From positions 9,022-73,021 of the forward strand of contig CADAGD010000018.1 of NCBI GenBank assembly GCA_902787375.1: 64,000 bases of DNA, in the 5' to 3' direction. The notes beneath the pieces were generated by a model. That model had not been told where the DNA came from. It searched no databases and was given only the letters and a program-made list of their open reading frames with translations. This document shows, piece after piece, positions 2,503-28,449 of this stretch. The stretch comes from an uncultured Eubacteriales bacterium. GTDB taxonomy: Bacteria; Bacillota; Clostridia; Christensenellales; CAG-138. A program made the position numbers and the translations under genes. Position 1 is the first letter of the stretch. Every line of letters begins with the position of its first letter.

Positions 2503-5500
2503 TTACCATGCGTAACTGTTGCTGCCGGCAACTACCTGAATACACCTTAAAGCATCCAAGCTTGATATTCTGTTGTTCTTATCAAAGTCCGCCGCAATAA
2601 AGTTTACTATTCCAAGTGTTCTGTTGCCTATGCTCGCCTGCTTTATGAATGTTGCGTCTACTGACGAGAGCTTTGCGTCAAGATTCGCATCACCCTTTAC
2701 AACAACAATTATCTCTACATCGGCATCGTTAACTGTGACCGTATAGCTATGTGTGTTGCCGCTTGTCGTGCATTTAAGAACTGTATATGTGTCGTTTCCT
2801 GTCATGAGAGCAACGGTACAAACCAGATCGCAAGCAACTGTGAATGTCACGTTACCGCTGTACAGCGTATCTGCAGAGATGCTTGTGGTAGCTTTGCCCT
2901 TTGTCTTATCAACAACGATTATATGATAACCATCGCCGCCTCCGGTTGCGGGAATCTCGACCTCCCTCGTCTGGGTCGTAAACATGCTGTTTGCGAACGT
3001 GGCGGTATAGACGCCGGTTCCGGGGGTGGTATCGGTGGGCTGCACGGTTACAGCGTATGTGGCTGTGACTGTTTCCGTAATAACATGGCTCGGATCGTTA
3101 GCGCAAACCGATGTGGCGGTAACGCTGTAGCCGGATGCCGTTTCAGTCCATTCATATGTGGGTGTGCCGTAATCATGTCCAATGGCATTCAGGCGAATCT
3201 TCTTGACGTCCTCATATGTATTGCCGTCAAGCTCGACCGTTGCGATATAGACGATCTCACCGCTTTCCTCGCATACGTTGCCGTCATGCTGAACCGTGAT
3301 GACAGCATCCATTGTCATTGTATGCGAAGCATCCTTCGTGCAGACAAAGTTTGCAGTAGCAGCGGTGTATCCGTCGTCATCGTTGCCGACCCATGTGAAG
3401 GACTCAAACTCCCACTCATGACCGCAGCCGCTTACCGTCTTGGAATCGATCTCTGAAAGAGCAAGATCGCCGTTGCGCTCTATGGTGCTTACAGTTACAA
3501 TGCTGTCATTGCATTTTCTCTCGAAGTGCAGGGCAGCTACAGGACGACCTGCGAATACCGCGTTGTACTTATCGGCAAACGCCAGTCTGATAAGTCCATT
3601 GTCATCCTTATAAGAGCAGTATTCGGCATCGTTGTCAAGACCTGTAAATATCAGCTCATCCGTATCATACTCAATCGTTATAAGTCCGTTGAATACATCC
3701 TGAGTATCGGATATCTGGATGAGGACATCTTCTTCATCCCCATATTCGGGATCGCTGATCTCCGCGGGTGTTATCGAGTTTGCAACAGTCCTGACGTCGG
3801 TTATTCTATTCAATCCGCCGGCAGGGGCCTTCTTACCGGCAATGCCGCTCAGCTCCTTAGCCTGAGCCTTGAATTTTGCCATAGTATCGGCATTCATCAT
3901 TTCATCGCGTGTGATATTCACTCTCTCGCAGTCCAGCTTGCTCGACTGTCCGTTTACCGAGAGGTTCGGAGCAACAGTGCCGTTCACATACAGACCGCAG
4001 ATGGGCCATGTATCCTCACCGAAGCCTCCGGCGTAGAATATCTCGCCATCCGACATTCTGATTATGATAAGCTCGGCATAATTGTTGCCCGCATGTGCCC
4101 AGTAGAGGTAGGTTCCGTCATAGTACAATGACTGGAACAGGAAGTATGTATTGACTCCCGTTTCGAGAACCAGTACGGGATCGGTAAAGTAGCATTCTTC
4201 GCCAAGAACGAGTGTGGTTTCCCATACCCTTCCACGCTCATCAAGGAAGTAATACGAGGATTCCAGCTCGCCAAGCTCCTTCGCGGTAACGCCTACGATG
4301 AACACGTCGCCGTCGCCAAGGCCAAGCAATGCAAGCGGGATACCCGTGTAGTATTCTTCGTTGCCATCATCCTCAGGTATCATGCTGCCCATTGCAAGAT
4401 ATGCGCCGGAGCTGTAAACCATATAATCGGTATAGATTGACGACGCAGGTGCAATATCGGTCATCCATGCATAGTTCTCACCAACATATGACAGGGAATA
4501 ATCGCTCCTGTTTACAGTAAAGAGCGCGGATGTCGCATAATCAAGATCCAAGCTGCCTGCCGAGAGTGTGTTCGCTCCTGACATGAAAGCCGAATGCAGC
4601 GCGGGGCTGTCGATGCCCTCGTTATGGAGCGGGTTCCAGTTGGGGATATTGTTCGTGTTGAATCCCGCAAAGTACGCGCTCTGATTATCCCAGAGTATGG
4701 CGTTCATCTCCTTATTGATCGTTATAACATTTACAGTACATGTCGCCGTCTTGGTGCTGTCGCCGTTAGCCGTCGCCGTTATGACAGCGGTTCCCTCGGA
4801 AACGCCCGTTATACGTCCGATCTGGCTTACAGTAGCGACGGACGGATTGCTGCTCGACCATGTGACCGTCCTATCCGAGGCGGTAAGGGGCATTACCGTT
4901 GCCTCAAGATCGGCTATGCTGCCCTTATAAATCTCAATGAAATCGGGATCTATGGCAACATCGGATACAGCGGTGGGATCCAAGCCGCCTGTAACTATCT
5001 TCTTGTACAGATATATGCTCTGAGCGGATGAGCTTATGGCAAACGTATTATTCTGGGCTACCATATAAGCTCCGTTTCCGGTTCCCAACCTGTCACTTGC
5101 GCCATCCCAGACCCATGTATTATATGACACGGAGGCGGAAATCTGTATGCTCGCGGAAGCCGTGTTATTCGATCTGCGCAGATAAACGCCGTTGTTTGAG
5201 AACGTCCCTCCGGTTGAAGCGCTTGTGTACGTCCATACCGAGTTGTTGTCAACACAGTCTTTATCAATAAAGATCGTTCCATCGTTCTCGATCGTCACAG
5301 CGTCAGAGGCTAAATAATATGAAATATAGACCGTACCCTGTGTTGTATAGCTGAGAGCGTATGCAGCACCCGGCTCACAGCTATTGACGATCAGGTACTC
5401 GCTGCCATCCTCAATTTCATGGGCAAGCTCATACCTTACCGTCTGGTTTTCTCCGCCGATATTGTCATTTACCTTGACCGCAACAGCGCTGTCATTTGCC

Positions 5501-8500
5501 GCATAGTCGCCTGCATATACCGCGACATAGCCGTTGGCGTTGGCGATCGCGTCGGCGATATTCAGCCTTACGGTATAGCTGTCGGTTCCGGGAATTGCCT
5601 CGGCATACTTGACGTCGCCGTTAAGGCTCATAACAGCTACATAAGCTATGTTCACGTTATCGGAAACCGTGACATTCAGGAAATTGCCGCTGAGACTTGT
5701 ACTCTCAATAACGGGCGGAGTGTCGTCTATCGTGAAGTCATATCCGATATACGCGCCCTTGCCAAGCACATTGCTTGTGAGTACATCTACGCTCGCATCA
5801 ACGTCGAGCTTGCCTGCGTAGTAGGTTGTTATATCGTCCCAATACTTCATCGCGTAGTATTCGGGAATAGCATAATAACCGAACCTGAACGCACTTCCCT
5901 CAGGAATCCCGTACCCCGACAGATTATAGTATAAATCCAACGCTCTTGTAGCCCTGTTCTGCCACAGCCCGTTGTTTATATTGTAGTAAAGACCGTCAAC
6001 ATTATAATCGTCAATGTTTCCGTCAAACAGGCTCAGAACATTGCCGCCGACCTCATCAATCGTACTTAACGCGAACAGAGTTGTTCCGGCGGAACGCAGA
6101 ACATTGTAATAAACGCTTCCGAGTGTATCCGTAGACCTCAACGCAATGCGATCCTCAGGGAACTCATCCTCAATCGCGTAGGGATTGCCGACCACTCGAT
6201 ATGTCTTACCGTTCCTCACATATGTGACATAGTTTGTATCCGCGAATCCCGAATACGGCGTCTTATCAGTTCCGTAAAGGGTATCCACATATGAGGTATT
6301 GTCGAACATAGAAGCATCCGTCCAGTTGCCATAGAAGCCGAGTATGGGGATGCTGTGCAGGTGGCTGTAGTCGGTACTCTTGATGTCGCTTGTTATGCAC
6401 TCAACATATGTATAACCCTCAATGTACGCGCCGTTTTCGAACTCGTTAAGCACAGCTCTCTGCTCGTCCGTAAGATTGATGTTTACGGTAACGTCCACCG
6501 AGCCGCCTGCCGGAACAAAGAATCCGTCGGCACTTGCTTCGGGAGTCCAGTCGATGAGCAGGTATGCGTCATATGTTGTAACGCTTCCGTCGCCGTCAAG
6601 ATCGGCAGCGACAGTATTTGTAACAGCCTTGGCGCGGTTGCCGGCAAGGTAGTCAAGTATCGCCTGAGCGTCGTCGTTATCGGTATCGCCGTCATTATCG
6701 ACGTCATGGCTCTGAATGCTTGAAGCTATGCCGTCCCAGATATAGGATACACCGCCGCCGGGGAGCATCTGTGTTTCATGGGTTACGAACTCGCCGTTTA
6801 TTCCCTGTGTGAACAGATCGGTCAGCAGCGAGAACTCAAGATCCACCGTGGACGTGTTGTAAACAGTAAAGTTATAGCTGTAAACACCGGTTTTTGCGGG
6901 ATCGTCGCCAAGCTCGACCTTTATCTTGCCGTCGGCGGCAGCACCCGTAAGGGCTGTGAGGTTATCATCCTCTGCACTCATCATTATGACAGTCGCGGCG
7001 TTTATGGCCCTGCTTACGTCTACAAGTCCCGCGCCCTGCTGCAGTACCGAAGCATAGCTGCCGTTGGGCTTCATGACGGTTGCCGTGGACATGAGCAAGC
7101 TCTGTATTATCTCACGGGTAGTATAGTTGTTGCTCAAATCGACATTCTTTGCCGACATGGGATTCTCTCTGAGATACTGGGCTACAACTGCGGAAAGACC
7201 CGCGATATGCGGAGCCGCCATGGATGTTCCGCTCATTATCTCATACTTATCCGTGCCGCCCGAAATTCTTCCGTTGGGAAGCACATGAGTACCGGCAACT
7301 GAGTAGATCGAACCGCCGGGAGCGGTTATTTCCGGCTTCATCAGCAGGGAGCCGGGTGCGCCCCATGAGCTGAAGTCCGAAACATTGGCTTCCTCACGGG
7401 TTATAAGGCTTCCGTGAACGGGTATATTCGTTACCTGAACGATGCCCGTATAGTATGTATAGTCGCCGACGGTATGAACCGCTGAGTTGGATTTGAGTGC
7501 TTCAGCGTTCGCAAGGGAAATGGTTACCATCGGGAATGTTCCCGTATAATCGTCAAGAAGCATTGATATTGTGCCGGGAATATTATTCGCGACAACAAGA
7601 GCTCTCGGATTATAGTCTATAAGGTTATTGCCCTTTTCCGAGAACGAGATGCTTCCGCGGTTTACGATAACCACTTTTCCGGTAAGGTCAAACTCCTCGT
7701 TTATCGCGCTGTAGTTTTCCGGCTCGCCGACCGCGTCAATATAGACGAAGTCATACCTTCCGGCAATAGTTACCATTTCGGGATTGCTGTACAGATCGCC
7801 CTCGAAGCTCTCGGTGCGCTCGACATAGAATACCTTCTGGTTGCCGTTGAAGATAAGCGGCGTACCCGTTTCACCGATATTGTCGGCGGAGGCTACCGTC
7901 ATGCCGTTGATGTAGGTTCCCGGACTTCCGCCGGTGTGGAAGCTGACGTCGTCCTTATACATCGGAGTTACCGCCGCGTCGTCAAAAGCACCCGCATTAC
8001 CTGCGGAAATGGAAACCACCATTCCCTCATTGCCGACCTTATCAACGAGGCTGTTGAAAATCTCCTGGTACTGATACGAGTATGTATAACCGGGAGCATA
8101 GGAGCCGAATGAGAGGTTTGCCGCGTCGCAGTCGAGCATTATGGCGTCCTCAAGGGCTGCCATATAGTCCGAATCATACGCGCCGCCCCTGACGCCGAAC
8201 ACCTTCATTATCAAGAGCTGAGCGTCGGGAGCCATGCCGACCGAATGAACAAGATCAATGGCGTCAACGTATCCCGCCGCCCCGTTTTCGACAAAACGGT
8301 TGGCCGCAGCAATACCGGCTACATGGGAACCATGCTCGCCATTCAGATCGTTCAAATGGGATATATCATTATTTCTGTCAACATAGTTATAACCATATGG
8401 TATTTTGGAATTGATATATGTTCCGCTTCCGTTGAGATCAAGATTGCTCGGAACGCTTGTCATAAGGTCTATGGCTTTTCCGGTCTGCGCAATGGCATAA

Positions 8501-9183
8501 TCGAAAGCACCGGAGTCAAAGGACTGATGGTTCACATCAATACCGGTATCTATCATGGCGATACGGCTTCCCGCGCCGGTGTAGCCGAGTCCGCTGTCCC
8601 ACGCGAGAACCGCGCCGACCATGTCGGTTGAGGTATTGGCTGTGTTGGGATGTGAAACCTCCTCCTTGGGAGCTTCATAATAGTTCTCAAGCTCGACCAT
8701 TTTTACGCCGGCTGTCTGGCGAATCTTCTCAATATCGCCGTAGCGTACTTCCGCCGATATGGCGTTGACCGCCAACGTAAGGTTCCACTCAACCTTTATG
8801 TCGGATTTGATTGCCTTTTCAATACTCTCCGTAATCCGCTTCTGCTCATTCTTTATGGATTTACGGTAGTTTGCCGCCTCGGTATTTGTTCCTATTCCCT
8901 TGGCGGAATACCCGGCGTCAATGGCTGCCGGAGATTCGAGGAATATGGATACTCGAACCATCTCATCAGGCGAAAACTCAGCCTTTTCCTCGGCTGAGCC
9001 TGCTTTCTCACCCTTGTCCTCACCCATAATGGGAACATTAAGGGTACTCGGATCGATTTTTACCGTTTCCGGCTTCCTGCTGCCGTCGTCGCGGACAACT
9101 GACGCGATTGCCGTCGAGGATATGGACGCAAGCATCAGAACCGCAAGCACGAATGCCAGAAGACTTCTAAGTGTCCTGTTCAT
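2503..9183 (-). CDS. Giant secreted S8 (subtilisin-like) serine protease with PA-domain insertion, Big_2-like and cohesin-like modules and a C-terminal dockerin-like module
   Basis: 2,226-aa ORF with a signal peptide (MNRTLRSLLAFVLAVLMLASISSTAIA). The subtilase triad is visible in MIDTGID (Asp codon 8548-8550), GEHGSHVAG (His 8323-8325) and SGTSMAAPHIAG (Ser 7222-7224). A PA domain is indicated by GKVVIVNRGSISFSEKG. The C-terminus carries a duplicated Ca-binding segment (GDANLDAKLSSVDA...DFDKNNRISSLDA). A sigma-A promoter and AGGAGG lie upstream. Confidence 0.9.
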   Translation of the reverse strand: MNRTLRSLLAFVLAVLMLASISSTAIASVVRDDGSRKPETVKIDPSTLNVPIMGEDKGEKAGSAEEKAEFSPDEMVRVSIFLESPAAIDAGYSAKGIGTNTEAANYRKSIKNEQKRITESIEKAIKSDIKVEWNLTLAVNAISAEVRYGDIEKIRQTAGVKMVELENYYEAPKEEVSHPNTANTSTDMVGAVLAWDSGLGYTGAGSRIAMIDTGIDVNHQSFDSGAFDYAIAQTGKAIDLMTSVPSNLDLNGSGTYINSKIPYGYNYVDRNNDISHLNDLNGEHGSHVAGIAAANRFVENGAAGYVDAIDLVHSVGMAPDAQLLIMKVFGVRGGAYDSDYMAALEDAIMLDCDAANLSFGSYAPGYTYSYQYQEIFNSLVDKVGNEGMVVSISAGNAGAFDDAAVTPMYKDDVSFHTGGSPGTYINGMTVASADNIGETGTPLIFNGNQKVFYVERTESFEGDLYSNPEMVTIAGRYDFVYIDAVGEPENYSAINEEFDLTGKVVIVNRGSISFSEKGNNLIDYNPRALVVANNIPGTISMLLDDYTGTFPMVTISLANAEALKSNSAVHTVGDYTYYTGIVQVTNIPVHGSLITREEANVSDFSSWGAPGSLLMKPEITAPGGSIYSVAGTHVLPNGRISGGTDKYEIMSGTSMAAPHIAGLSAVVAQYLRENPMSAKNVDLSNNYTTREIIQSLLMSTATVMKPNGSYASVLQQGAGLVDVSRAINAATVIMMSAEDDNLTALTGAAADGKIKVELGDDPAKTGVYSYNFTVYNTSTVDLEFSLLTDLFTQGINGEFVTHETQMLPGGGVSYIWDGIASSIQSHDVDNDGDTDNDDAQAILDYLAGNRAKAVTNTVAADLDGDGSVTTYDAYLLIDWTPEASADGFFVPAGGSVDVTVNINLTDEQRAVLNEFENGAYIEGYTYVECITSDIKSTDYSHLHSIPILGFYGNWTDASMFDNTSYVDTLYGTDKTPYSGFADTNYVTYVRNGKTYRVVGNPYAIEDEFPEDRIALRSTDTLGSVYYNVLRSAGTTLFALSTIDEVGGNVLSLFDGNIDDYNVDGLYYNINNGLWQNRATRALDLYYNLSGYGIPEGSAFRFGYYAIPEYYAMKYWDDITTYYAGKLDVDASVDVLTSNVLGKGAYIGYDFTIDDTPPVIESTSLSGNFLNVTVSDNVNIAYVAVMSLNGDVKYAEAIPGTDSYTVRLNIADAIANANGYVAVYAGDYAANDSAVAVKVNDNIGGENQTVRYELAHEIEDGSEYLIVNSCEPGAAYALSYTTQGTVYISYYLASDAVTIENDGTIFIDKDCVDNNSVWTYTSASTGGTFSNNGVYLRRSNNTASASIQISASVSYNTWVWDGASDRLGTGNGAYMVAQNNTFAISSSAQSIYLYKKIVTGGLDPTAVSDVAIDPDFIEIYKGSIADLEATVMPLTASDRTVTWSSSNPSVATVSQIGRITGVSEGTAVITATANGDSTKTATCTVNVITINKEMNAILWDNQSAYFAGFNTNNIPNWNPLHNEGIDSPALHSAFMSGANTLSAGSLDLDYATSALFTVNRSDYSLSYVGENYAWMTDIAPASSIYTDYMVYSSGAYLAMGSMIPEDDGNEEYYTGIPLALLGLGDGDVFIVGVTAKELGELESSYYFLDERGRVWETTLVLGEECYFTDPVLVLETGVNTYFLFQSLYYDGTYLYWAHAGNNYAELIIIRMSDGEIFYAGGFGEDTWPICGLYVNGTVAPNLSVNGQSSKLDCERVNITRDEMMNADTMAKFKAQAKELSGIAGKKAPAGGLNRITDVRTVANSITPAEISDPEYGDEEDVLIQISDTQDVFNGLITIEYDTDELIFTGLDNDAEYCSYKDDNGLIRLAFADKYNAVFAGRPVAALHFERKCNDSIVTVSTIERNGDLALSEIDSKTVSGCGHEWEFESFTWVGNDDDGYTAATANFVCTKDASHTMTMDAVITVQHDGNVCEESGEIVYIATVELDGNTYEDVKKIRLNAIGHDYGTPTYEWTETASGYSVTATSVCANDPSHVITETVTATYAVTVQPTDTTPGTGVYTATFANSMFTTQTREVEIPATGGGDGYHIIVVDKTKGKATTSISADTLYSGNVTFTVACDLVCTVALMTGNDTYTVLKCTTSGNTHSYTVTVNDADVEIIVVVKGDANLDAKLSSVDATFIKQASIGNRTLGIVNFIAADFDKNNRISSLDALRCIQVVAGSNSYAW

Positions 9184-20993: not shown

Positions 20994-21022
20994 TTGACAA
21001 TATTTAGCAAATAGATTAAAAT
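20994..21022 (+). promoter_or_regulatory. Sigma-A-type promoter with A-tract UP-like repeats
   Basis: TTGACA, 17 nt, TAAAAT, preceded by three tandem 13-nt A-tract units (20932-20970). Confidence 0.55.
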
Positions 21023-21512
21023 AATATAGAAAACAAAATAACGCGGCAGTCGGGAAGATGCGGCAACATCCTCCCGACCTGCATATGTGAACCACCCACA
21101 TACACAACGGGTCTATTGCCCGTACACGCATTCATATTATACGGAAATTTCTCCTCATTTTCAAGCCCCTTTTGGGTGCAGCGGAGGCTTTCCGATGTGC
21201 GCGAGGCTGTGTATGTAAGGTACATGGCTGTTTTTGTTTTCCGAAAGTCCTTGGGGGCGGGAAAACCTGCCCCAAGGAACCGCTTTCGGGCTGCGCGCTT
21301 CGGAAGGCTTTTCTGTTACCCTTTAACACAATATATTATCGGCACTCCAAACCCATCAATACTCAAAAAGGGGGAACTATATTGAAACAATATTCAATCA
21401 ATAATCTTAGAAAACTGTTATTAATATAATAGGCATTAGATAGATCAGTCATTTGGAGTGCAGAAGCTGAACGGGATTAACAGCAATTTGCTTTTTGGAA
21501 CGTTGCCCCCTG

Positions 21513-21540
21513 AAAACCACATAGTGGTTTTGCTTTATAG
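21513..21540 (+). terminator. Terminator/attenuator-like hairpin about 45 nt upstream of the mosaic gene
   Basis: AAAACCAC-ata-GTGGTTTT followed by GCTTTAT. Confidence 0.4.
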
Positions 21541-21586
21541 TTCACAAATTACACCAAATTAAGATGCTGTAAAGGAGGACAATACA

Positions 21587-24500
21587 ATGAAAAAAACACT
21601 TATTAAACTAATGTCATTGATACTTGTAGTATCGTTTTTGACAATTTCAGTACCTATCGGAGCTTCCGATATTGTTAGTACTAACTGTGAAAAAACTCAA
21701 GCAACAAAGACGCAATCTCACTACAATAACTTTTCTAGTAATTATACTTTAACCGGAAATGGTGCAACAGACATGGTTGCTATAGCACTTGCTCAGGAAG
21801 GAAAGACTGGTAATCAGCTTGGATATACTGAACAATGGTGCGCTGATTTTGTTTGTGACTGTGCTTGTCTTGCCGGACAAAGTGCGGCTATTCCATTTTA
21901 TGGTGCAGTTGCTGGATTAAGAAGTAGATTAATAAATGCGGGGGGAACTTACGTTACAGTTGGAACTGCACGTCCTGGCGATCTCTGTATTATTGATTGG
22001 AACGGAACCGGAAATAACAATCATATAGAAATAGTCTACTCGGCAAATGGCTCGACAATATCAACAATAGGTGGAAACTCTGGTTCTGCATCAAGTTTAT
22101 ATTCACGAAGCGTTAAAAAGCATAACCCATTAAGCAACTCAGTAATAACATGTATCATTCGACCCAACTATTCAGGTTCCTCAAATCCCGTTAATCCACA
22201 ACCAAATCCCAACCCTCAGCCAAGTGGAGATCAGCTTCCTGTAGGTTGTGTCGATAATGTATCAGGAAGTCCTGGGACAATCACGGTAGCAGGATGGGCA
22301 TTCGATCCTGATTGTTCAAGCATGAGTATAAAAATCCATGTATATTTTGATGGAACACATGTATATACACTTGATACAAATCATGATCGTTCAGATGTTC
22401 GTGCCGCTTTTTCAATAGATGGATTTCACGGCTTTGAAGGTAACCTTGCCACATCAAAAACCGGTTCTGTAAGCGTCAAAATTTATGCTATTGGCGTTGA
22501 TTGTAACGGACATGACCAACAGGGCAATACACTGCTGTATGAGGGTAGTGTTAGCGTAAGCGCAAGTCCTGAGCCCCCATCTAACTACTATCATCTTGAC
22601 GTAAATGGTGTTCTTGACGGAAAACTATCTCCTAATCTTGGTTCATATGGCACCGTAGATATATATATAAACGGTGAGCTTGTAGCTGCAGATGCAACAG
22701 ATTTTTACCAAACTTATCCTAGTGGAACAATCTATGAGGTGAAGCAGCCTGATCCAAATTACGGATACTCCTTTTCCGGTATCGCAAACGGAAGCTTGAA
22801 AGGAACGATTAATGGCGAAACAGAAGTTCGGCTGAAGTTTGATTATAATAATCTCAGTGCAATCATTGAAACGCCTGAAGCCCACTATTACAACGGTCAT
22901 ACCTATTATCTGTTTACAACACCCTGCACATGGTATTATGCAAATGAATACTGCGTAGCCAACGGGGGACATCTTGTAACTATAACATCTGCCGGAGAAA
23001 ATGATTTTGTCAGAAATCTATTTTCAGGCATGCAAAGAATTTGGATAGGCGGAACCAACTGCAATCTGGACTCGAACTATGAATGGGTTACACGTGAATC
23101 CTTCTCGTTTACTGATTGGAGGGGCAGTCAGCCCGATAACTCTTTCAATTCAGGCGATTACGAACACTACATAGAGTATTATGCCGAATCGATGGAAGGT
23201 CATTGGAATGATGCCGTTGGCTTTATTAAGTCGCCTTTTGTCATGGAAATGGACGGCATTCCGGTTGGTTTAACCGAAGAAGTCAGCGGAGCTGATGGCA
23301 GAGTATATCTCAAAGGTTGGGCATACGATCCCGATTGCCCTTCTGCAAGCGTAAAAATGCATATTTATGTCAACGGCGATTATGCTGGTACTCTTATCGC
23401 AAATAAGCCAAGATCCGATGTAAATACTGCGCATGGAATTACCGGCAATCACGGTTTTGAAGGTTGGGTAAGAACCTCACGTACCGGTAGTCAGCCTATA
23501 CAGATTTTTATCATTGATCTAAATGCTAATGGTCAACCCGGTGACCAGATACCACCTCGTACATTGGAGGGTATTCATTTCACAACCATCAGTAACACAA
23601 CAAATCAATACTATTATGTTCGTTTTTTTGGAAAGGACAAGAGTGAAATACTTGATCATCAACTCGTATTAAAGGGTTCCTCTGCTACTCCTCCGCAAAC
23701 ACCGAGAATTGAAGGATTTGTTTTTTCGCATTGGAGTGAAAGCTACACAAACATAACAGCAGATAAAGAAATAGTTGCGATATACGAGCAAGAACCTACT
23801 CCAACGGAATGTCCTACGGCAACTCCTACTGTGGCTCCTACCGCAACTCCTACTGTGGCTCCTACTGTAGCTCCTACACCTACTCCAACAACTGCTCCTA
23901 CAGCAACCCCAAATCCGATTCCGGAGAACGAACCCAAAATCGTAGTCAGTAGTCCAACTGCAGTAACAGGCAATACAGTTACCGCAACCGTAAGTATCGA
24001 AAACAACCCCGGCTTTATTAACATGAAGCTTCACCTGAGATATGATCCTCTCCTTACTCTTGTTTCGGTTGAAAATACTGGACTAATTCCCGGATTTGAG
24101 GGTTCTTCTGATATAGCCAACCCATACCTGCTTGTCTGGAATAACGATACTACTGCGACAAGTAATATTATGTCGAACGGAACTATCGCTGTGCTGACAT
24201 TCGCTGTACCTGATGGTACCGAAGCGGGGGATTATGCAATTACCATAGATTATAATGTTATCGATGATGATATACATGATTATAATCTTGACACGGTTGA
24301 GTTCTTCATAGTCAACGGTCATATTCATGTCATCGATGTACTTCTTGGTGATGTCAATTCTGATGGCAGAGTTACCACAATAGACAGAGCAATCCTTGCG
24401 CGTTATCTTGCAGGCTGGGCAAACTATCCTTCTTCTATGATAAACTTTGTTGCTGCCGACGTTAATCTTGATGGCAAGGTCACAACAAAAGATCGTGCAA

Positions 24501-25198
24501 TACTTGCTCGACATCTTGCCTGTTGGACAGGGTATGAAGAACTTCCGCATCTGGACAAAGGTATTCATGTTCAAAGAGCCCTGATACAAGAAGGAGAGCC
24601 GACAATTATCGTCGGAACAGTTGAAGGACATCCCGGCGACATTGTTACTGTGCCTGTTAGTATTCAAGATAATCCCGGTTTCATTGATATGAAGCTCAAA
24701 CTCAGCTTCGATCCTGCACTAACACTTATTGAGGTACAAGATACAGGTATTCTTCCGGGCAAGGAACACTCTAACACTCTCGGCAATCCTTATATTCTTG
24801 TTTGGAACAACGATATCACGGCAAACGATGATCTCTATGTGGATGGAGTAATAGTCAATCTGGTATTCCAGATTTCCGAAAATGCTGAAGCAGGTGAGTA
24901 TTACGTCAACATCTCCTATGACAATAGTCAAGAAGAGATACTTGATTATAATCTCAATACTGTAGAATTCGCTGTTGTAAACGGCACAGTTGCCACTAAT
25001 ATAGGTATCCTTGGTGATGCCAACGGCGACGGCGAATTTACATTCAATGATGTAACAGTTCTATACTTCTACCTGCTCAACGGCAATGTGACAGAGATTA
25101 CGCCTAAGAGTTTGACAAATGCCGATCTGAATCACGATGGAGTTGTGAGTGTATCAGACATAACCCTTATGTATAACCGTCTTCTTGGCGGAAAATAA
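21587..25198 (+). CDS. Secreted mosaic protein with CHAP amidase, two GW/RSDV beta-repeats, C-type lectin domain, InlB-B-like repeat, PT linker, then cohesin, dockerin, cohesin, dockerin
   Basis: 1,203 aa with AAGGAGG upstream and a signal peptide. The CHAP domain shows Cys in EQWCADFV (codon 21839-21841) and His in NNHIEIV. The CTLD reads CVANGGHLVTITS...WIGG...QPD (23129-23137)...WND (23204-23212). The two cohesins read NPGFINMKL.../NPGFIDMKL.... The two dockerins are duplicated EF-hand pairs (DVNSDGRVTTIDRA...DVNLDGKVTTKDRA; DANGDGEFTFNDV...DLNHDGVVSVSDI). Confidence 0.9.
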   Translation: MKKTLIKLMSLILVVSFLTISVPIGASDIVSTNCEKTQATKTQSHYNNFSSNYTLTGNGATDMVAIALAQEGKTGNQLGYTEQWCADFVCDCACLAGQSAAIPFYGAVAGLRSRLINAGGTYVTVGTARPGDLCIIDWNGTGNNNHIEIVYSANGSTISTIGGNSGSASSLYSRSVKKHNPLSNSVITCIIRPNYSGSSNPVNPQPNPNPQPSGDQLPVGCVDNVSGSPGTITVAGWAFDPDCSSMSIKIHVYFDGTHVYTLDTNHDRSDVRAAFSIDGFHGFEGNLATSKTGSVSVKIYAIGVDCNGHDQQGNTLLYEGSVSVSASPEPPSNYYHLDVNGVLDGKLSPNLGSYGTVDIYINGELVAADATDFYQTYPSGTIYEVKQPDPNYGYSFSGIANGSLKGTINGETEVRLKFDYNNLSAIIETPEAHYYNGHTYYLFTTPCTWYYANEYCVANGGHLVTITSAGENDFVRNLFSGMQRIWIGGTNCNLDSNYEWVTRESFSFTDWRGSQPDNSFNSGDYEHYIEYYAESMEGHWNDAVGFIKSPFVMEMDGIPVGLTEEVSGADGRVYLKGWAYDPDCPSASVKMHIYVNGDYAGTLIANKPRSDVNTAHGITGNHGFEGWVRTSRTGSQPIQIFIIDLNANGQPGDQIPPRTLEGIHFTTISNTTNQYYYVRFFGKDKSEILDHQLVLKGSSATPPQTPRIEGFVFSHWSESYTNITADKEIVAIYEQEPTPTECPTATPTVAPTATPTVAPTVAPTPTPTTAPTATPNPIPENEPKIVVSSPTAVTGNTVTATVSIENNPGFINMKLHLRYDPLLTLVSVENTGLIPGFEGSSDIANPYLLVWNNDTTATSNIMSNGTIAVLTFAVPDGTEAGDYAITIDYNVIDDDIHDYNLDTVEFFIVNGHIHVIDVLLGDVNSDGRVTTIDRAILARYLAGWANYPSSMINFVAADVNLDGKVTTKDRAILARHLACWTGYEELPHLDKGIHVQRALIQEGEPTIIVGTVEGHPGDIVTVPVSIQDNPGFIDMKLKLSFDPALTLIEVQDTGILPGKEHSNTLGNPYILVWNNDITANDDLYVDGVIVNLVFQISENAEAGEYYVNISYDNSQEEILDYNLNTVEFAVVNGTVATNIGILGDANGDGEFTFNDVTVLYFYLLNGNVTEITPKSLTNADLNHDGVVSVSDITLMYNRLLGGK

Positions 25199-25234
25199 TT
25201 CTTAGCATCAAATAAACGTCGTTTATCCGTGTTC

Positions 25235-25270
25235 TGCCTCCCTTTTTTCACAGGGGAGGCATTTTGTTTG
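25235..25270 (+). terminator. Intrinsic terminator after the mosaic gene
   Basis: TGCCTCCC...GGGAGGCA stem followed by TTTTGTTTG. Confidence 0.7.
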
Positions 25271-25300
25271 TCTGCCTTCCTGCCTGATTTGCAACATAAA

Positions 25301-25328
25301 GGGACGGTCTATTCGCACAGACCGTCCC
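25301..25328 (-). terminator. Intrinsic terminator after the M42 gene trio
   Basis: The 10-bp stem GGGACGGTCT/AGACCGTCCC is followed on the minus strand by TTTATGTT. Confidence 0.65.
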
Positions 25329-25352
25329 CTATTGTAATTTGCTTTTTCGCTA

Positions 25353-26363
25353 TCAGCTCAGCGGAAGCTCCTCACTTTCCGCAAGAGCGCGGACGAACCT
25401 GACCGCCTCGGCGCAATCATCCAGATCCGCCATTTCGACGGGGGAATGGATATAGCGGGTGACTATGGAAACGCAGCCCGAAGCGACGCCGCCCCTTGCT
25501 GACTGAATGGCTCCGCTGTCGGTTCCGCCCGCCTTTAGTATTTCATTCTGGGTCTTGATGCCGTTATCATTTGCGACCTTGCGCATGAAGTCGATAACGG
25601 GCTTTGTGAACACCGCCGACCTATCCATGTATTTTATCGTCGCGCCCTCGCCCATCTTCATGGGAAGGGGCATACATTCGGGGGTATCCGCCGACATTGT
25701 GACGTCCATATTTATCGAGAAATCCGGGGCGATCGAGTATGCCGCGGCGGTCGCTCCGCGAAGCCCGACCTCCTCCTGCGTGGTGAAGCACACGCATATC
25801 TCATGCGGGGATTTCATATCCTTCATCGCCTCAATGAGTATGGCGCAGCATATCCTGTCGTCGAGCGCACCGCAGGCGACGCGGTTCCCCATATCGACAA
25901 AATGCGGGGCGTATGTGCATATATCGCCTATGCTGACATGCCCTTCCGCCTTCTCGCGGCTGTCACAGCCTATATCAATGAACATCTGCGCAAGCGTCGG
26001 CTTGCCGTCCGTGACGGTCTTCTGCTCATAATACGTCACGCCCCTGACGCCGTTCTCGAATACGACCTCGCGGCAGGCGGTTATAGCGGGATTTATTCCT
26101 CCGACCGGAGCAAACCTCAAAAAGCCCTTCTCGTCAATGTCGGTGACGATCAGCCCTATCTGATCCATATGCGCCGAGAGCATCACGCGCTTGCCGCTCG
26201 TACCCTTTTTCGTGCATATGAGATTGCCCATGGCGTCCCTTCGTATCTCATCCACATACGGGGATATGCGTTTTTCTATAAAATCGGCAATCCTTTCCTC
26301 ACGTCCCGTGGGGCCGTAAACCTCCGTTATCTCACGAATCAGCTCTTTTAATTCATTACTCAT
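25353..26363 (-). CDS. M42 family metallo-aminopeptidase (TET/FrvX/CelM-like), paralog 1
   Basis: Motifs HMDQIG, LDDRICC and TTQEEVGLRGA. GAGGTG lies 5 nt upstream of ATG 26363, and the start overlaps the stop of paralog 2 (ATGA). Confidence 0.85.
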   Translation of the reverse strand: MSNELKELIREITEVYGPTGREERIADFIEKRISPYVDEIRRDAMGNLICTKKGTSGKRVMLSAHMDQIGLIVTDIDEKGFLRFAPVGGINPAITACREVVFENGVRGVTYYEQKTVTDGKPTLAQMFIDIGCDSREKAEGHVSIGDICTYAPHFVDMGNRVACGALDDRICCAILIEAMKDMKSPHEICVCFTTQEEVGLRGATAAAYSIAPDFSINMDVTMSADTPECMPLPMKMGEGATIKYMDRSAVFTKPVIDFMRKVANDNGIKTQNEILKAGGTDSGAIQSARGGVASGCVSIVTRYIHSPVEMADLDDCAEAVRFVRALAESEELPLS

Positions 26364-27412
26364 TTTAACACCTCGCAAAACTTTTTGTCCTCAAGGAAAT
26401 AATCGGCAAGCAGCAGCATGTTTTTGAAATCCTCCCATGAAGCAACGCTTGTCGCGGAGTGGATATACCTGCACGGAAGCGATATGCCCCCTGCGATACA
26501 CCCGCCCATGTCGATATGCACGCGGCCTATGTCCGTCCTTCCGTTCGTGCCTTGGCGCATCTGGAACGGTATCCCATGCTCCTGCGCCGTGCTTCTCAGA
26601 GCGTCGAACATCTTGGGACGCACGACCGTTCCTCCGTCCATGAACGTGATTGCCGGCCCTCTGCCCACTCTTGTAACGGACTCATGCCCCTTCGCTTCGG
26701 GCATGTCGTTCGCCGTCGTTCCCTCAAAATTCAGCGCAATATCTGGCTTTACATGGTCGGCAACAAGATTGGCTCCCCGTAGGCCCGCCTCCTCCTGCAC
26801 GGTAAAGCAGGCGTAAATATCGCAGTCATAATCCTGCTTCAAAAGCTCTATCAGTATGGCGCATCCGACCCTGTCGTCAAGTGCCTTGCCCATGAACATT
26901 CCGTCTCCGAACTCGGAAAACTTCGTCGTGAAGCAGGCATAATCGCCCACCTTGACATATTTCTTCGCTTCATCGGCATCCTTCGCGCCAATATCTATCG
27001 TGAGCCTCTTATGCGGCACGCTCGACGCAAAGTCTTCCTCACTTTGGAGGTGTATGGGCTTTGTGCCGACCACTCCCGGCACGCCGTCCCTGCCGACCGC
27101 TACACGGCGTCCCGGCATTACGCGGCAGTCTATGCCCGCAGGAGAATATTCGAGCTCGCCGTCGCTGCGTATGTTGTTTATCAGCATACCGACCTCGTCC
27201 ATATGCGCCATCAGCGCGACCTTGGGCTTCCCCTCCTTCTTCTTTCTCGCATAGAGGTTGCCCATCGTATCGGTATAGACCTCGTCACAAAGAGGCGTCA
27301 CAGCCTCCCTTATGAATCTGCGCACCTCTCCCTCGTCGCCGCTCACGCCGCGTATGTTTGACAGCTTCTCAAGGCAGGTATCCGCAAGCTTTATGTCCAT
27401 CAGTCGAGGCAT
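26360..27412 (-). CDS. M42 family metallo-aminopeptidase, paralog 2
   Basis: Motifs HMDEVG, LDDRVGC and TVQEEAGLRGA. GGAGGG lies 7 nt upstream of ATG 27412. Confidence 0.85.
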   Translation of the reverse strand: MPRLMDIKLADTCLEKLSNIRGVSGDEGEVRRFIREAVTPLCDEVYTDTMGNLYARKKKEGKPKVALMAHMDEVGMLINNIRSDGELEYSPAGIDCRVMPGRRVAVGRDGVPGVVGTKPIHLQSEEDFASSVPHKRLTIDIGAKDADEAKKYVKVGDYACFTTKFSEFGDGMFMGKALDDRVGCAILIELLKQDYDCDIYACFTVQEEAGLRGANLVADHVKPDIALNFEGTTANDMPEAKGHESVTRVGRGPAITFMDGGTVVRPKMFDALRSTAQEHGIPFQMRQGTNGRTDIGRVHIDMGGCIAGGISLPCRYIHSATSVASWEDFKNMLLLADYFLEDKKFCEVLK

Positions 27413-28449
27413 AGCATTTCCCTCCAATTCTCATCCAGAGCTGTTATGAATTCCGCGCAGAGCCTTCCGCAGTTGAGCAGAGTTTCTCCGCTTATCGTTT
27501 CCACATTTGTGTGCATATAGCGCAGCGGCGGAGAAATCAGCACGCACGGCACTCCCATGCCCGCAACCTGCATATCCGTAGCATCCGTTCCCGTAGCTCC
27601 CATGCACGGCTCATAGTCCCATTTAAGCTTCGCGCCGTCGGCTGCCTCCTTGAGCTTTGCAAACATCTTGGGATGGATATTCGGCCCCACCGCAAGGAGC
27701 ATCTCGTCCATATCGGCTTCATCGGGCGTGCATGCCGCCTTGCCGAATGTCACGTCCATTACGATTCCCATATCCGGCTTGACGCTGACAGAGGCTGTCC
27801 TTGCGCCAAGTCCCGTCTTTTCCTCATTGACCGAGGCGCACATTACGACCTTGCAGTTGAATCTGCGCTTTTTCAGTATCTCAAGGCAGTAAAGCTCCGC
27901 CGCTATAAGCGCTCTGTCATCGAGCGTCTTGGATGATATGAAGCCGTTTTTAAGCTCAAGAACATCCTCAGGATAGAATGTTATCCTATCGCCGACGCTG
28001 ACAAGCTCGCACACTTTTTCATACGGATAGCCCAAATCGACAAACAGCTCGTCCCATTTGTAGGCGGCGTCCTTCGACGCGGTAAGATGCGGAGGTATGG
28101 CTCCCACAACTCCCGTCAGCCTCTCGGCTCCAAGCACAAGCACACGCGATCCGGGCAGCACGCGCGGATCAACTCCCGCAACGGACGCCATCCTAAGCAT
28201 TCCGTTCTTCTCAATGCCCGTGACGCACATCCCTATCTCGTCCATGTGTGCCATAATAAGCAGGGTGGGGCCGCTGTCACCAACCTCGGCAAATACATTG
28301 CCGTTCACATCGGAATAAACACGCGCATTATCAAAGCCTTCCGTATACTGCTCGAAAAGCTCCTTCACAACGCCGTTTATCCCGCAATGCTCAAAGCCCG
28401 TCACGCCCTCCGCCTTGACAAGCCTGTTCAAAACATTGACTAAATCCAT
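27400..28449 (-). CDS. M42 family peptidase paralog 3 (divergent active-site region)
   Basis: HMDEIG is retained, but LDDRALI and SVNEEKTGLGA replace the DDRxGC and QEExGLRGA motifs. The gene overlaps paralog 2 by 13 nt. Confidence 0.8.
   Translation of the reverse strand: MDLVNVLNRLVKAEGVTGFEHCGINGVVKELFEQYTEGFDNARVYSDVNGNVFAEVGDSGPTLLIMAHMDEIGMCVTGIEKNGMLRMASVAGVDPRVLPGSRVLVLGAERLTGVVGAIPPHLTASKDAAYKWDELFVDLGYPYEKVCELVSVGDRITFYPEDVLELKNGFISSKTLDDRALIAAELYCLEILKKRRFNCKVVMCASVNEEKTGLGARTASVSVKPDMGIVMDVTFGKAACTPDEADMDEMLLAVGPNIHPKMFAKLKEAADGAKLKWDYEPCMGATGTDATDMQVAGMGVPCVLISPPLRYMHTNVETISGETLLNCGRLCAEFITALDENWREMLCLD

Follow-up and report, generated by a model that had tools for sequence, protein, structure and literature searches.

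The protein encoded at positions 21587 to 25198 of the window, which is the whole 64,000-nucleotide (64-kb) stretch of DNA analyzed here, ends in two alternating cohesin-dockerin pairs, and on balance appears to be an enzyme whose self-matched cassette is fused to its own adaptor. The first dockerin (Doc1) would close as a clasp on the second cohesin (Coh2), leaving the first cohesin (Coh1) free, and the second dockerin (Doc2) would be aimed elsewhere. The modules, the recurrence of their layout, their covariation and their equivalents as separate genes are observations, from which we infer the binding partners and whether binding takes place within or between chains.

Architecture of the gene and its modules

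The features discussed below are as follows.

21587..25198, + strand: whole gene, 1203 aa, a single uninterrupted frame in the ORF list
21824..22078, + strand: CHAP domain, aa 80-164 (PF05257, 30.1 bits, cut-off 26)
22925..23239, + strand: C-type lectin domain, aa 447-551 (PF00059, E 1.4e-10)
23792..23926, + strand: Pro/Thr-rich linker upstream of the cassettes, aa 736-780, from the translation
23927..24337, + strand: cohesin 1 (Coh1), aa 781-917 (PF00963, 43.4 bits, E 4.9e-11)
24341..24547, + strand: dockerin 1 (Doc1), aa 919-987 (PF00404, 56.2 bits, E 4e-15)
24548..24592, + strand: Doc1-Coh2 linker of 15 aa, aa 988-1002, without a signal peptide
24593..25000, + strand: cohesin 2 (Coh2), aa 1003-1138 (PF00963, 49.8 bits, E 5.4e-13)
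25007..25195, + strand: dockerin 2 (Doc2), aa 1141-1203 (PF00404, 41.2 bits, E 1.9e-10)
25235..25271, + strand: terminator-like hairpin and T run, 37 nt past the stop codon
2503..9183, - strand: S8 protease (subtilase), 2226 aa, with two dockerins

The protein is composed, in order, of a signal peptide, the CHAP domain, a repeat domain, a beta domain, the C-type lectin, a repeat domain, a Flg_new-like domain and the Pro/Thr linker followed by Coh1-Doc1-Coh2-Doc2. Pfam matches were obtained for CHAP (the N-terminal segment being scanned on its own), Lectin_C, Cohesin (twice) and Dockerin_1 (twice). The CHAP domain, a peptidoglycan amidase/endopeptidase fold, carries the candidate catalytic residues Cys85 and His146 in motifs that are both intact in the translation (QWCADFV and NNHIEIV). 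The translated lectin domain contains QPD (aa 515-517) and WND (aa 540-542), presumably a Ca-dependent sugar site. The protein is most likely a secreted enzyme of an uncultured gut clostridial bacterium, combining CHAP cell-wall hydrolase and C-type lectin domains. The hairpin downstream of the gene, found by a consensus scan, has 10 pairs, 6 of them G-C, and is followed by TTTTGTTTGT.

Three independent metagenome contigs encode the identical 1203-aa protein, and a 94%-identical CDCD tail lies behind a different N-terminal domain in another protein (P0048), which together exclude an assembly chimera. An artefact of assembly or gene calling was ruled out by the three contigs and by the 47 different proteins that contain a fused unit with a short linker and no signal peptide. 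Synteny with the nearest relatives (L005-L008) extends to three M42 peptidase genes only; no cohesin or dockerin was found within 10 kb of these genes in the relatives, which shows merely that the gene is absent from that position there.

Module limits were set with local HMMs and, scanned one by one, all four modules exceed the Pfam gathering scores (24.1 for cohesin PF00963 and 22.9 for dockerin PF00404). The first-pass annotation had described an alternating cohesin-dockerin-cohesin-dockerin arrangement, and this is indeed what the single ORF contains, with module boundaries that agree to within a few codons. The proposed paralogy of the two cohesins is likewise upheld by a gap-free identity of 48% over 132 aa, as is the dissimilarity of the dockerins: Doc1 and Doc2 share 35% identity and have unlike recognition positions, and each differs from both dockerins of the S8 protease. 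All the dockerin repeats conform to the type I pattern, in which a 12-residue Ca-binding loop (D-x-N/D-x-D-G ... D12) and a helix occur twice; the loops DVNSDGRVTTID, DVNLDGKVTTKD, DANGDGEFTFND and DLNHDGVVSVSD, predicted from sequence, are each followed by a predicted helix. The Doc1 repeats are nearly identical (18 of 23 residues) and present T931, R934 and A935 in repeat 1 and T967, R970 and A971 in repeat 2 as recognition residues, with a conserved W-x-GYE-x-LP tail that recurs in homologues. Doc2, by comparison, has asymmetric repeats that agree at 10 of 23 residues, carry V1156 and I1192 at position 13, and are not followed by the GYE-LP tail; when Doc2 is compared by itself, its nearest genomic matches come from dockerins of Bacteroidota MAGs (35-48% identity).

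The AlphaFold2 model of the four modules has a mean pLDDT of 90.7 and a pTM of 0.70. Both cohesins are all-beta modules (pLDDT 91-98; 91-97 in Coh1) which, together with Foldseek support, agree with the nine-stranded beta jelly-roll of cohesins. Against solved type I cohesins, Foldseek gave TM scores of 0.74-0.82 and rmsd values of 2.2-2.9 Å for a cohesin of the model, either Coh1 or Coh2; for the four-module model it returned per-domain matches only and none for the module arrangement. The pLDDT falls below 50 solely in the Doc1-Coh2 linker (residues 213-216 of the region). It declines to 66-87 in Doc2, where the alignment is very shallow, and the Doc1 tail is ordered (about 90).

Recurrence of the layout and its two-gene equivalents

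An exhaustive HMMER search yielded 9327 matches, 371 of them at E<=1e-30, and architectures were derived for 186 sequences, among which Coh-Doc (69), Coh-Coh-Doc (31), Coh-Doc-Coh (27) and Coh-Doc-Coh-Doc (10) were counted as overall arrangements. The layout had initially been considered exceptional, which was wrong, as 47 of the 186 homologues contain Coh-Doc-Coh units, 49 in all. The cohesin-to-dockerin junction is essentially linkerless throughout these units, and their dockerin-to-cohesin linker mostly spans about 13-26 aa, with a maximum of about 32. The two cohesins of one protein share 22-74% identity, often exceeding the identity to the Coh2 of any other protein; the pattern of own versus foreign Coh2 identity is mixed, and compatible with a single ancient origin or repeated origins of the unit.

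Partner domains in 30 Coh-Doc-Coh proteins include Flg_new, LRR, SLH, Lectin_C, Big_2, CHAP, PG_binding and M23. No glycoside hydrolase occurs among the top 25 of the 32 families in these proteins, nor among the scanned ORFs of the 64-kb window; the dockerin-bearing glycoside hydrolases held on cohesins by which a cellulosome or amylosome is recognized were thus found in neither set. The same family also includes proteins consisting of 4-6 tandem dockerins alone, of the Doc1-like type. The cassette family is large, with thousands of database matches, and comes almost wholly from uncultured organisms. The Coh-Doc-Coh layout, recurrent in many gut bacteria, seems to be undescribed, and no description of it or of a linkerless self-matched cassette was found in the literature outside subscription journals.

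The C-terminus may be regarded as a fusion of two units that are encoded elsewhere as neighbouring genes. In the split layout, an enzyme-Coh-Doc gene is followed by a gene whose product starts with a signal peptide and cohesin and continues either into a membrane anchor or into another dockerin of a different kind. The adaptor role suggested by the first-pass annotation finds support in one such unfused pair (locus L087): an M23x2-SH3-Big_2x2-Coh(D)-Doc(R) gene, with a 231-aa signal peptide-Coh(D)-Doc(A) gene 20 nt downstream. The upstream and downstream cohesins are identical in their code residues, as defined below, in two loci (L086 and L089) and agree at two of the three code positions in a third (L085). 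L001, L086 and L092 each encode a protein whose cohesin is N-terminal and whose C-terminus consists of a transmembrane helix plus a basic tail, as do five or more other loci, for which only the N-terminal-cohesin gene was looked at. The genomes with split genes are mostly distant from those in the covariation alignment.

Covariation and the predicted binding partners

MI-APC was used to measure covariation in an alignment of 160 Coh|Doc cassettes (Neff 132). The residue at cohesin position 74 (D854 in Coh1) pairs with dockerin position 13, at Z 11.1 for repeat 1 and Z 11.5 for repeat 2; cohesin 70 covaries with dockerin 10 and cohesin 121 with dockerin 14, and the dockerin repeats covary mutually, with Z up to 24. 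The main combinations of cohesin 74 with the two dockerin positions 13 are D-R/R (79 cassettes), S-V/V (12) and G-S/S (7), and Asp is the cohesin residue in 81 of the 83 cassettes bearing R/K at both positions 13. In Coh-Doc-Coh units the two cohesins usually share their code residues and track the dockerin between them, the order Coh1-Doc-Doc-Coh2 reading D-R-R-D in 17, S-V-V-S in 9 and G-S-S-G in 4. In the protein studied here, Coh1 (V850, D854, L901) and Coh2 (V1072, D1076 and L at the equivalent of position 121) have the same code residues.

On an NJ tree built without the covarying columns, cohesin 74 changes on 36 branches, 15-18 of which coincide with a change at dockerin 13, as against 4-5 expected; for control columns the median co-change is 15% and the highest 38%. 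Even with this tree-based control, common descent or gene conversion among the modules could still have raised the covariation.

These patterns make self-recognition, raised in the first-pass annotation, plausible at the sequence level, Doc1 having R13 in both repeats and the partner Asp being present in both cohesins. The first unit, Coh1|Doc1, would be a linkerless self-matched cassette in which positions 10, 13 and 14 of both Doc1 repeats fit a cohesin of its own type, with Arg934/Arg970-Asp854 as the central pair. The second unit, Coh2|Doc2, may act as an adaptor, and Coh2 would be a second acceptor for a Doc1-type dockerin, because its recognition residues, including Asp1076, equal those of Coh1. 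As read from sequence, cassette 2 combines an Asp cohesin with a V/I dockerin and so stands apart from 81 of the roughly 92 Asp cassettes. Other Asp/non-Arg cassettes are few, several of them closing a multi-cohesin protein or lying in a small one. The earlier prediction of two binding specificities accords with this, since the dockerin positions found to covary with the cohesin are occupied differently in Doc1 and Doc2, yet a single-position mismatch is not proof against the binding of Coh2 by Doc2. With Val1156 and Ile1192, Doc2 would dock the entire protein onto a cohesin of another kind, encoded beyond the window and probably on a surface anchor; no cohesin partner for it was found in the 64 kb.

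The Doc1-linker-Coh2 segment was modelled at a pLDDT of 93.2 and a pTM of 0.87, against about 0.6 by our own estimate for two undocked domains of this size, which suggests docking within one chain, judged from pTM alone with a program that may dock any cohesin with any dockerin. In the most likely resting state, Doc1 would reach over the 15-residue linker and sit on the Coh2 of its own chain as a closed clasp, and the free Coh1 would capture the Doc1-type dockerin of another protein.

Alternatively, Doc1 may reach the cohesin of a neighbouring chain and produce head-to-tail or branched chains. The head-to-tail chains envisaged earlier are possible, but AlphaFold2 favours the closed Doc1-Coh2 form at least as much. 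It is a good deal less probable than the clasp that Doc1 passes over its own Coh2 and pairs with Coh1 or Coh2 of further copies or with cohesins of different cassette proteins, each molecule then being a unit of one donor and two acceptors that forms surface chains rooted via Doc2 or membrane-anchored cohesins. The single specificity code of both cohesins fits Doc1, anchor genes of the type signal peptide-cohesin-transmembrane helix with the same code follow single Coh|Doc genes, and the tandem-dockerin proteins of the family would cross-link cohesins. There is also a precedent in Ruminococcus bromii Amy4, whose dockerin recognizes its own cohesin (PMC4611034). Against such chains stand the confident placement of Doc1 relative to the same-chain Coh2 and the 15-aa linker, which would give the partner in the same chain a much higher local concentration than any in trans.

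An improbable alternative is that the protein is an ordinary multi-specific adaptor, the mode of classical scaffoldins, with no binding within the protein, all four partners encoded elsewhere and a covariation due to descent and concerted evolution. The identity between Coh1 and Coh2, often highest within one protein, points to repeated duplication or gene conversion, and exceptions to the Asp/Arg rule exist (D-L/L, for example). However, the covarying dockerin positions 10, 13 and 14 overlap the classical type I recognition sites (positions 10 and 11), the covarying cohesin columns lie in or beside predicted strands 3, 5 and 8 (in our own numbering), the same-branch co-changes exceed those of every control column, and the code holds across neighbouring genes in loci mostly distant from the training set.

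Lastly, it is very improbable that one of the cohesins holds a dockerin of the S8 protease and tethers it to an anchor, as first suggested: the protease gene lies 12 kb away in the same window and its two dockerins are the only others in the 64 kb, but it is neither adjacent nor co-oriented, both repeats of both its dockerins have Ala at position 13, a residue accompanied in the family by Gly, Ser, Ala or Pro cohesins and by Asp just once, and its C-terminal dockerin is of the type (...SYAW) that is terminal and outward-facing in another Coh-Doc-Coh protein (P0050), suggesting a different cohesin target.

Meaning and comparison with known systems

In the usual cohesin-dockerin assembly, a scaffold bears many cohesins and each enzyme one dockerin, almost always for the breakdown of fibre or starch. 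Here, by contrast, a donor and its matching acceptor stand back to back in one protein, often with a second acceptor, and cell-wall hydrolases, lectins and adhesins are the cargo. If the self-matching of the fused cassette is true, specificity would follow a simple sequence code with an Asp-Arg pair at its centre, such proteins would be natural self-assembling building blocks, and there would be reason to assign cellulosome-like complexes a part in gut cell-cell interaction or bacterial antagonism. Tentatively, cassettes, Coh-Doc-Coh proteins, poly-dockerins and single-cohesin membrane anchors may make up a widespread and undescribed self-assembling surface system in uncultured gut and rumen Clostridia. 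Each component would then combine a donor with one acceptor or two, all of one specificity, daisy-chaining or branching from the membrane; the cargo of the system would be peptidoglycan hydrolases, lectins and adhesins, not plant-fibre enzymes, and the whole would be a machine built like a cellulosome and directed at other cells, for attack or for binding.

The nearest parallel is Amy4 (Sca1), an enzyme of the R. bromii amylosome, for which self-aggregation is considered possible (PMC4611034). Both proteins are enzymes, not pure scaffolds, from gut Clostridia, with cohesin and dockerin modules in the catalytic chain, the present ORF joining CHAP to two cohesins and two dockerins. Amy4, however, has one cohesin and one dockerin on a GH13 amylase of a starch-degrading complex, whereas the window protein alternates two of each, with two predicted specificities and CHAP and lectin cargo; self-recognition was demonstrated for Amy4 and is here suggested by covariation and the pTM of 0.87.

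The best sequence and fold matches are type I pairs (6kgc, 1g1k, 4uyp, 1ohz and 2vn5, TM about 0.8), and the near-identical Doc1 repeats resemble those of the dual-binding-mode systems of Clostridium thermocellum, C. cellulolyticum and C. acetobutylicum. In those systems, cognate cohesin and dockerin are on separate proteins, whereas here they are joined without a linker and a second matching cohesin follows. The modules of Archaeoglobus fulgidus, which interact, also combine a cohesin and a dockerin in one non-cellulosomal protein (fold match 2xdh, TM 0.78), but in an archaeal host, as a single pair and with other associated domains. The W-x-GYE-x-LP tail of Doc1 resembles the conserved terminal extension of the R. 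flavefaciens ScaA dockerin, which forms an intramolecular clasp and contributes to the structure (PMC3821032); this resemblance serves as a lead only.

Adaptor scaffoldins join a cohesin and a dockerin of different specificity and thereby connect cargo to anchor (PMC5301203, PMC12484212). Examples are R. flavefaciens ScaC, which has a single cohesin and a single dockerin, and A. cellulolyticus ScaB. As predicted from sequence, cassette 2 and the 231-aa L087 protein are laid out in the same way. The adaptors known so far are cellulosomal proteins in their own right and have no catalytic role; in the window protein, where the CHAP motifs of Cys85 and His146 are intact and, as far as the listed partner families show, no carbohydrate-active enzyme is involved, the adaptor would be fused behind an enzyme that has a self-matched cassette of its own.

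The cohesin-dockerin gene, its modules and their recurrence

The cohesin-dockerin-cohesin-dockerin arrangement (Coh1, Doc1, Coh2, Doc2) noticed in the first-pass annotation is real and no artefact, since gene calling gives an identical 1203-aa protein on each of three metagenome contigs. All four C-terminal modules fall within a single open reading frame, followed 3' of its stop codon by a terminator-like hairpin, and each exceeds the Pfam gathering score when scanned singly.

Features of the gene and its 1203-aa product
21587-25198, + strand: the open reading frame
N-terminus: signal peptide
aa 80-164: CHAP domain, Cys85 and His146 motifs kept
~aa 217-330 and ~aa 556-660 (nt about 22235-22576 and 23252-23566), + strand: repeated beta domain
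aa 447-551 (nt 22925-23239), + strand: C-type lectin domain, QPD at aa 515-517 and WND at aa 540-542
between the second beta-domain copy and Coh1: Flg_new-like segment, then Pro/Thr linker
aa 781-917: Coh1
aa 919-987: Doc1
between Doc1 and Coh2: 15-aa linker
aa 1003-1138: Coh2
aa 1141-1203 (nt 25007-25195): Doc2

The two cohesins are 48% identical without gaps and the two dockerins 35% identical; by direct reading, the paired repeats of Doc1 agree in 18 of 23 residues and those of Doc2 in 10 of 23. Upstream of the tail, the protein combines a CHAP hydrolase with a lectin whose motif is of the galactose type, which speaks for cell walls or glycan-coated surfaces as its target, and not for plant fibre. 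In the lectin homologues of two Coh-Doc-Coh proteins from the database search (P0053 and P0055), EPN replaces QPD, which hints that sugar specificity is switched within the family. The two copies of the beta domain have the motif GWA-x-DPDC ... HGFEG in common and no Pfam match; the domain is shared with an M23 peptidase homologue (P0067) and a further homologue (P0049).

A word-based protein search recovered mostly relatives with single Coh-Doc tails. An exhaustive HMMER search over 1.84 billion representatives gave 9327 matches, 371 of them with E<=1e-30, and many of the top matches span query positions 3-357 unbroken, corresponding to Coh1-Doc1-Coh2. Local cohesin and dockerin HMMs were used to annotate 186 sequences; taken as a whole, 69 proteins were Coh-Doc, 31 Coh-Coh-Doc, 27 Coh-Doc-Coh and 10 Coh-Doc-Coh-Doc, and four had tandem dockerins only. 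The Coh-Doc-Coh unit itself was found 49 times, in 47 proteins; the cohesin-to-dockerin junction is essentially linkerless in all 49, and the gap from the dockerin to the next cohesin is mostly about 13-26 residues, with a maximum of about 32. Doc2 immediately follows Coh2 only in the window protein and in P0048, a relative whose last 424 aa are 94% identical. P0048 shares the lectin, the repeat domain and the four-module tail, and carries a different N-terminal domain in place of CHAP, a case of module shuffling in which the assembly tail stays constant. In the remaining Coh-Doc-Coh-Doc proteins the terminal dockerin is preceded by a spacer of ~65-190 aa, which resembles Flg_new repeats in the four read closely (P0051, P0053-P0055). 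The tandem-dockerin proteins (P0005, P0016, P0068 and P0175) bear 4-6 GYE-x-LP-tailed dockerins and no cohesin, and could cross-link cohesin-bearing proteins.

The Pfam partners of 30 Coh-Doc-Coh proteins comprise Flg_new (11), BspA-type LRR (6), SLH (6), Lectin_C (5), Big_2 (4) and CHAP (3), together with PG_binding, M23, ricin and lipase; no glycoside hydrolase is among the families listed for these proteins. Nearly all genome matches belong to uncultured Clostridia of the gut or rumen (Oscillospiraceae, Acutalibacteraceae, Ruminococcus and unclassified lineages); the hosts are goats, deer and non-industrialised humans.

Covariation between cohesin and dockerin

Mutual information with APC correction was calculated for 160 linkerless cohesin-dockerin pairs (Coh|Doc cassettes; Neff 132). 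Of all couplings, the strongest connect the two dockerin repeats (Z up to 24), and the repeats are therefore kept symmetric. Between the domains, the top coupling joins cohesin position 74 (D854 in Coh1) to dockerin position 13 of both repeats (R934, Z 11.1; R970, Z 11.5), followed by cohesin 70 (V850) with dockerin position 10 (Z 6.0 for repeat 1 and 8.1 for repeat 2) and cohesin 121 (L901) with dockerin position 14 (Z 5-6). Positions 10 and 11 of the dockerin belong to the classical type I recognition sites. The covarying cohesin columns lie in or beside predicted strands 3, 5 and 8, numbered in the strand order of the model, which form the dockerin-binding face of solved type I complexes.

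The combinations of cohesin 74 with the two dockerin 13 residues included D-R/R (79 cassettes), S-V/V (12), G-S/S (7) and G-D/N (6); where both dockerin residues are R/K, the cohesin residue is Asp in 81 of 83 cassettes. As a phylogenetic control, a neighbor-joining tree was built without the covarying columns: cohesin 74 changes on 36 of its branches, and dockerin 13 also changes on 15-18 of these, against a chance expectation of 4-5. For control cohesin columns, the median overlap with dockerin 13 changes was 15% and the highest 38%.

Both cohesins of a Coh-Doc-Coh unit usually carry the same residue at position 74, which tracks that of the dockerin (D-R-R-D in 17 units, S-V-V-S in nine, G-S-S-G in four). 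In the window protein, Coh1 and Coh2 have the same residue at 8 of 11 compared covarying positions, including 70, 74 and 121. At position 13, the two repeats of Doc2 have V and I, which places the second cassette (Coh2|Doc2) among the few that combine Asp with a residue other than Arg; several others of this kind are the last cassette in a multi-cohesin protein, or occur in a small protein.

The first-pass annotation had also envisaged a bridge from these cohesins to a secreted S8 protease encoded in the window.

Features of the S8 protease
2503-9183, - strand: secreted S8 subtilase, 2226 aa, with PA insert, Big_2 domain and two dockerins
aa 826-877 (nt 6553-6708), - strand: internal dockerin
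about aa 2163-2224 (nt 2512-2697), - strand: C-terminal dockerin

In both protease dockerins, position 13 is Ala in each repeat; by the family pattern they would not fit the Asp cohesins, and the proposed bridge finds no support. The Coh-Doc-Coh protein P0050 ends in the same dockerin type as the protease C-terminus. A stretch of the protease at ~aa 1814-1930 is weakly cohesin-like (local HMM i-E 0.04; Pfam Cohesin E 0.011, with 16.4 bits falling short of the 24.1 cut-off). Besides Coh1 and Coh2, the 64-kb window contains no clear cohesin.

Predicted pairing, split genes and origin

The first cassette (Coh1|Doc1) would be self-matched, Coh2 would offer a further acceptor site for dockerins of the Doc1 type, and Doc2 may serve as an outward-facing plug into a cohesin encoded outside the window, predicted to be membrane- or SLH-anchored and to lack Asp at position 74. 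The four-module tail, modelled from a 30-sequence alignment, reached pLDDT 90.7 and pTM 0.70, with pLDDT <50 only at its residues 213-216, within the linker. Doc1-linker-Coh2 alone gave pLDDT 93.2 and pTM 0.87, compared with our own estimate of near 0.6 for undocked domains of 65 and 137 aa on a floppy linker, so that, as read from pTM, the model fixes Doc1 relative to Coh2. Doc1 may close on the Coh2 within the same chain, the reading suggested by AlphaFold2. Alternatively, Doc1 may bind the cohesins of neighbouring chains and generate polymers, as first proposed from the layout. Whether Doc1 binds within or between chains, Coh1 would be available to recruit a further protein through its Doc1-type dockerin.

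Related loci, mostly distant from the covariation alignment, present similar parts as two genes, one ending in Coh|Doc and closely preceding a signal peptide-cohesin gene. The second protein takes two forms. One has Cys-rich (CxxC) repeats and ends in a transmembrane helix with a Lys/Arg basic tail. Its gene comes right after the Coh|Doc gene in L001 (10001-16286), L086 and L092, the loci with this form whose upstream gene was examined; similar N-terminal-cohesin proteins occur in L115, L127, L130, L132 and L144. This recurrent small protein resembles a membrane anchor with a single cohesin. In the other form (L087; L085), the cohesin is followed by another, different dockerin. The residues at cohesin positions 70, 74 and 121 are the same upstream and downstream in L086 (VDV), L087 (SDM) and L089 (NDG), and two of three match in L085 (SDV upstream, ADV downstream). 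The clearest parallel to the window protein is L087, in which an M23x2-SH3-Big_2x2-Coh(Asp)-Doc(Arg) gene is followed 20 nt downstream by one whose 231-aa product has the order signal peptide-Coh(Asp)-Doc(Ala). The window protein looks like a fusion of two such neighbouring genes and, by the logic of fusion, its first dockerin and second cohesin would be partners.

Next to the gene lie conserved peptidase genes.

Flanking feature
25353-28449, - strand: three tandem paralogous M42-family peptidase genes (341, 355 and 349 aa)

These paralogues are about 30% identical to one another, and the trio is kept together in Christensenellales-like MAGs. The M42 peptidase flanking the cohesin-dockerin gene is 74-75% identical to those of uncultured Clostridia MAGs and about 60% identical to those of Christensenella and Christensenellales MAGs. 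Across 21000-25500, the G+C content is 40-44% in the cohesin-dockerin gene, against 50-56% in both flanks, and the gene is missing at the matching position beside the peptidase trio in the nearest MAGs; both are compatible with its horizontal acquisition. Ruminococcus sp. zg-924 encodes the closest genome-borne relative of the protein as a whole. For Doc2 alone, the closest genomic matches (35-48% identity) are dockerin-like modules of Bacteroidota MAGs, not Clostridia, assigned to Muribaculaceae and Prevotellaceae (L125, L134, L135, L141, L151, L155, L157, L162).

Comparison with known systems

The modules themselves are ordinary type I-like cohesins and dockerins. In the literature searched, we found no description of a linkerless self-matched Coh|Doc cassette, of a Coh-Doc-Coh unit with matched flanking cohesins, of the fusion of such a unit to an adaptor, or of its association with cell-wall hydrolases, lectins or adhesins. 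Adaptors made of a cohesin plus a dockerin are known, R. flavefaciens ScaC and others among them. Amy4 of R. bromii combines a cohesin and a dockerin on one enzyme and exhibits self-recognition (PMC4611034); the window protein resembles it in carrying both modules on an enzyme, yet the self-recognition known for Amy4 is here inferred.
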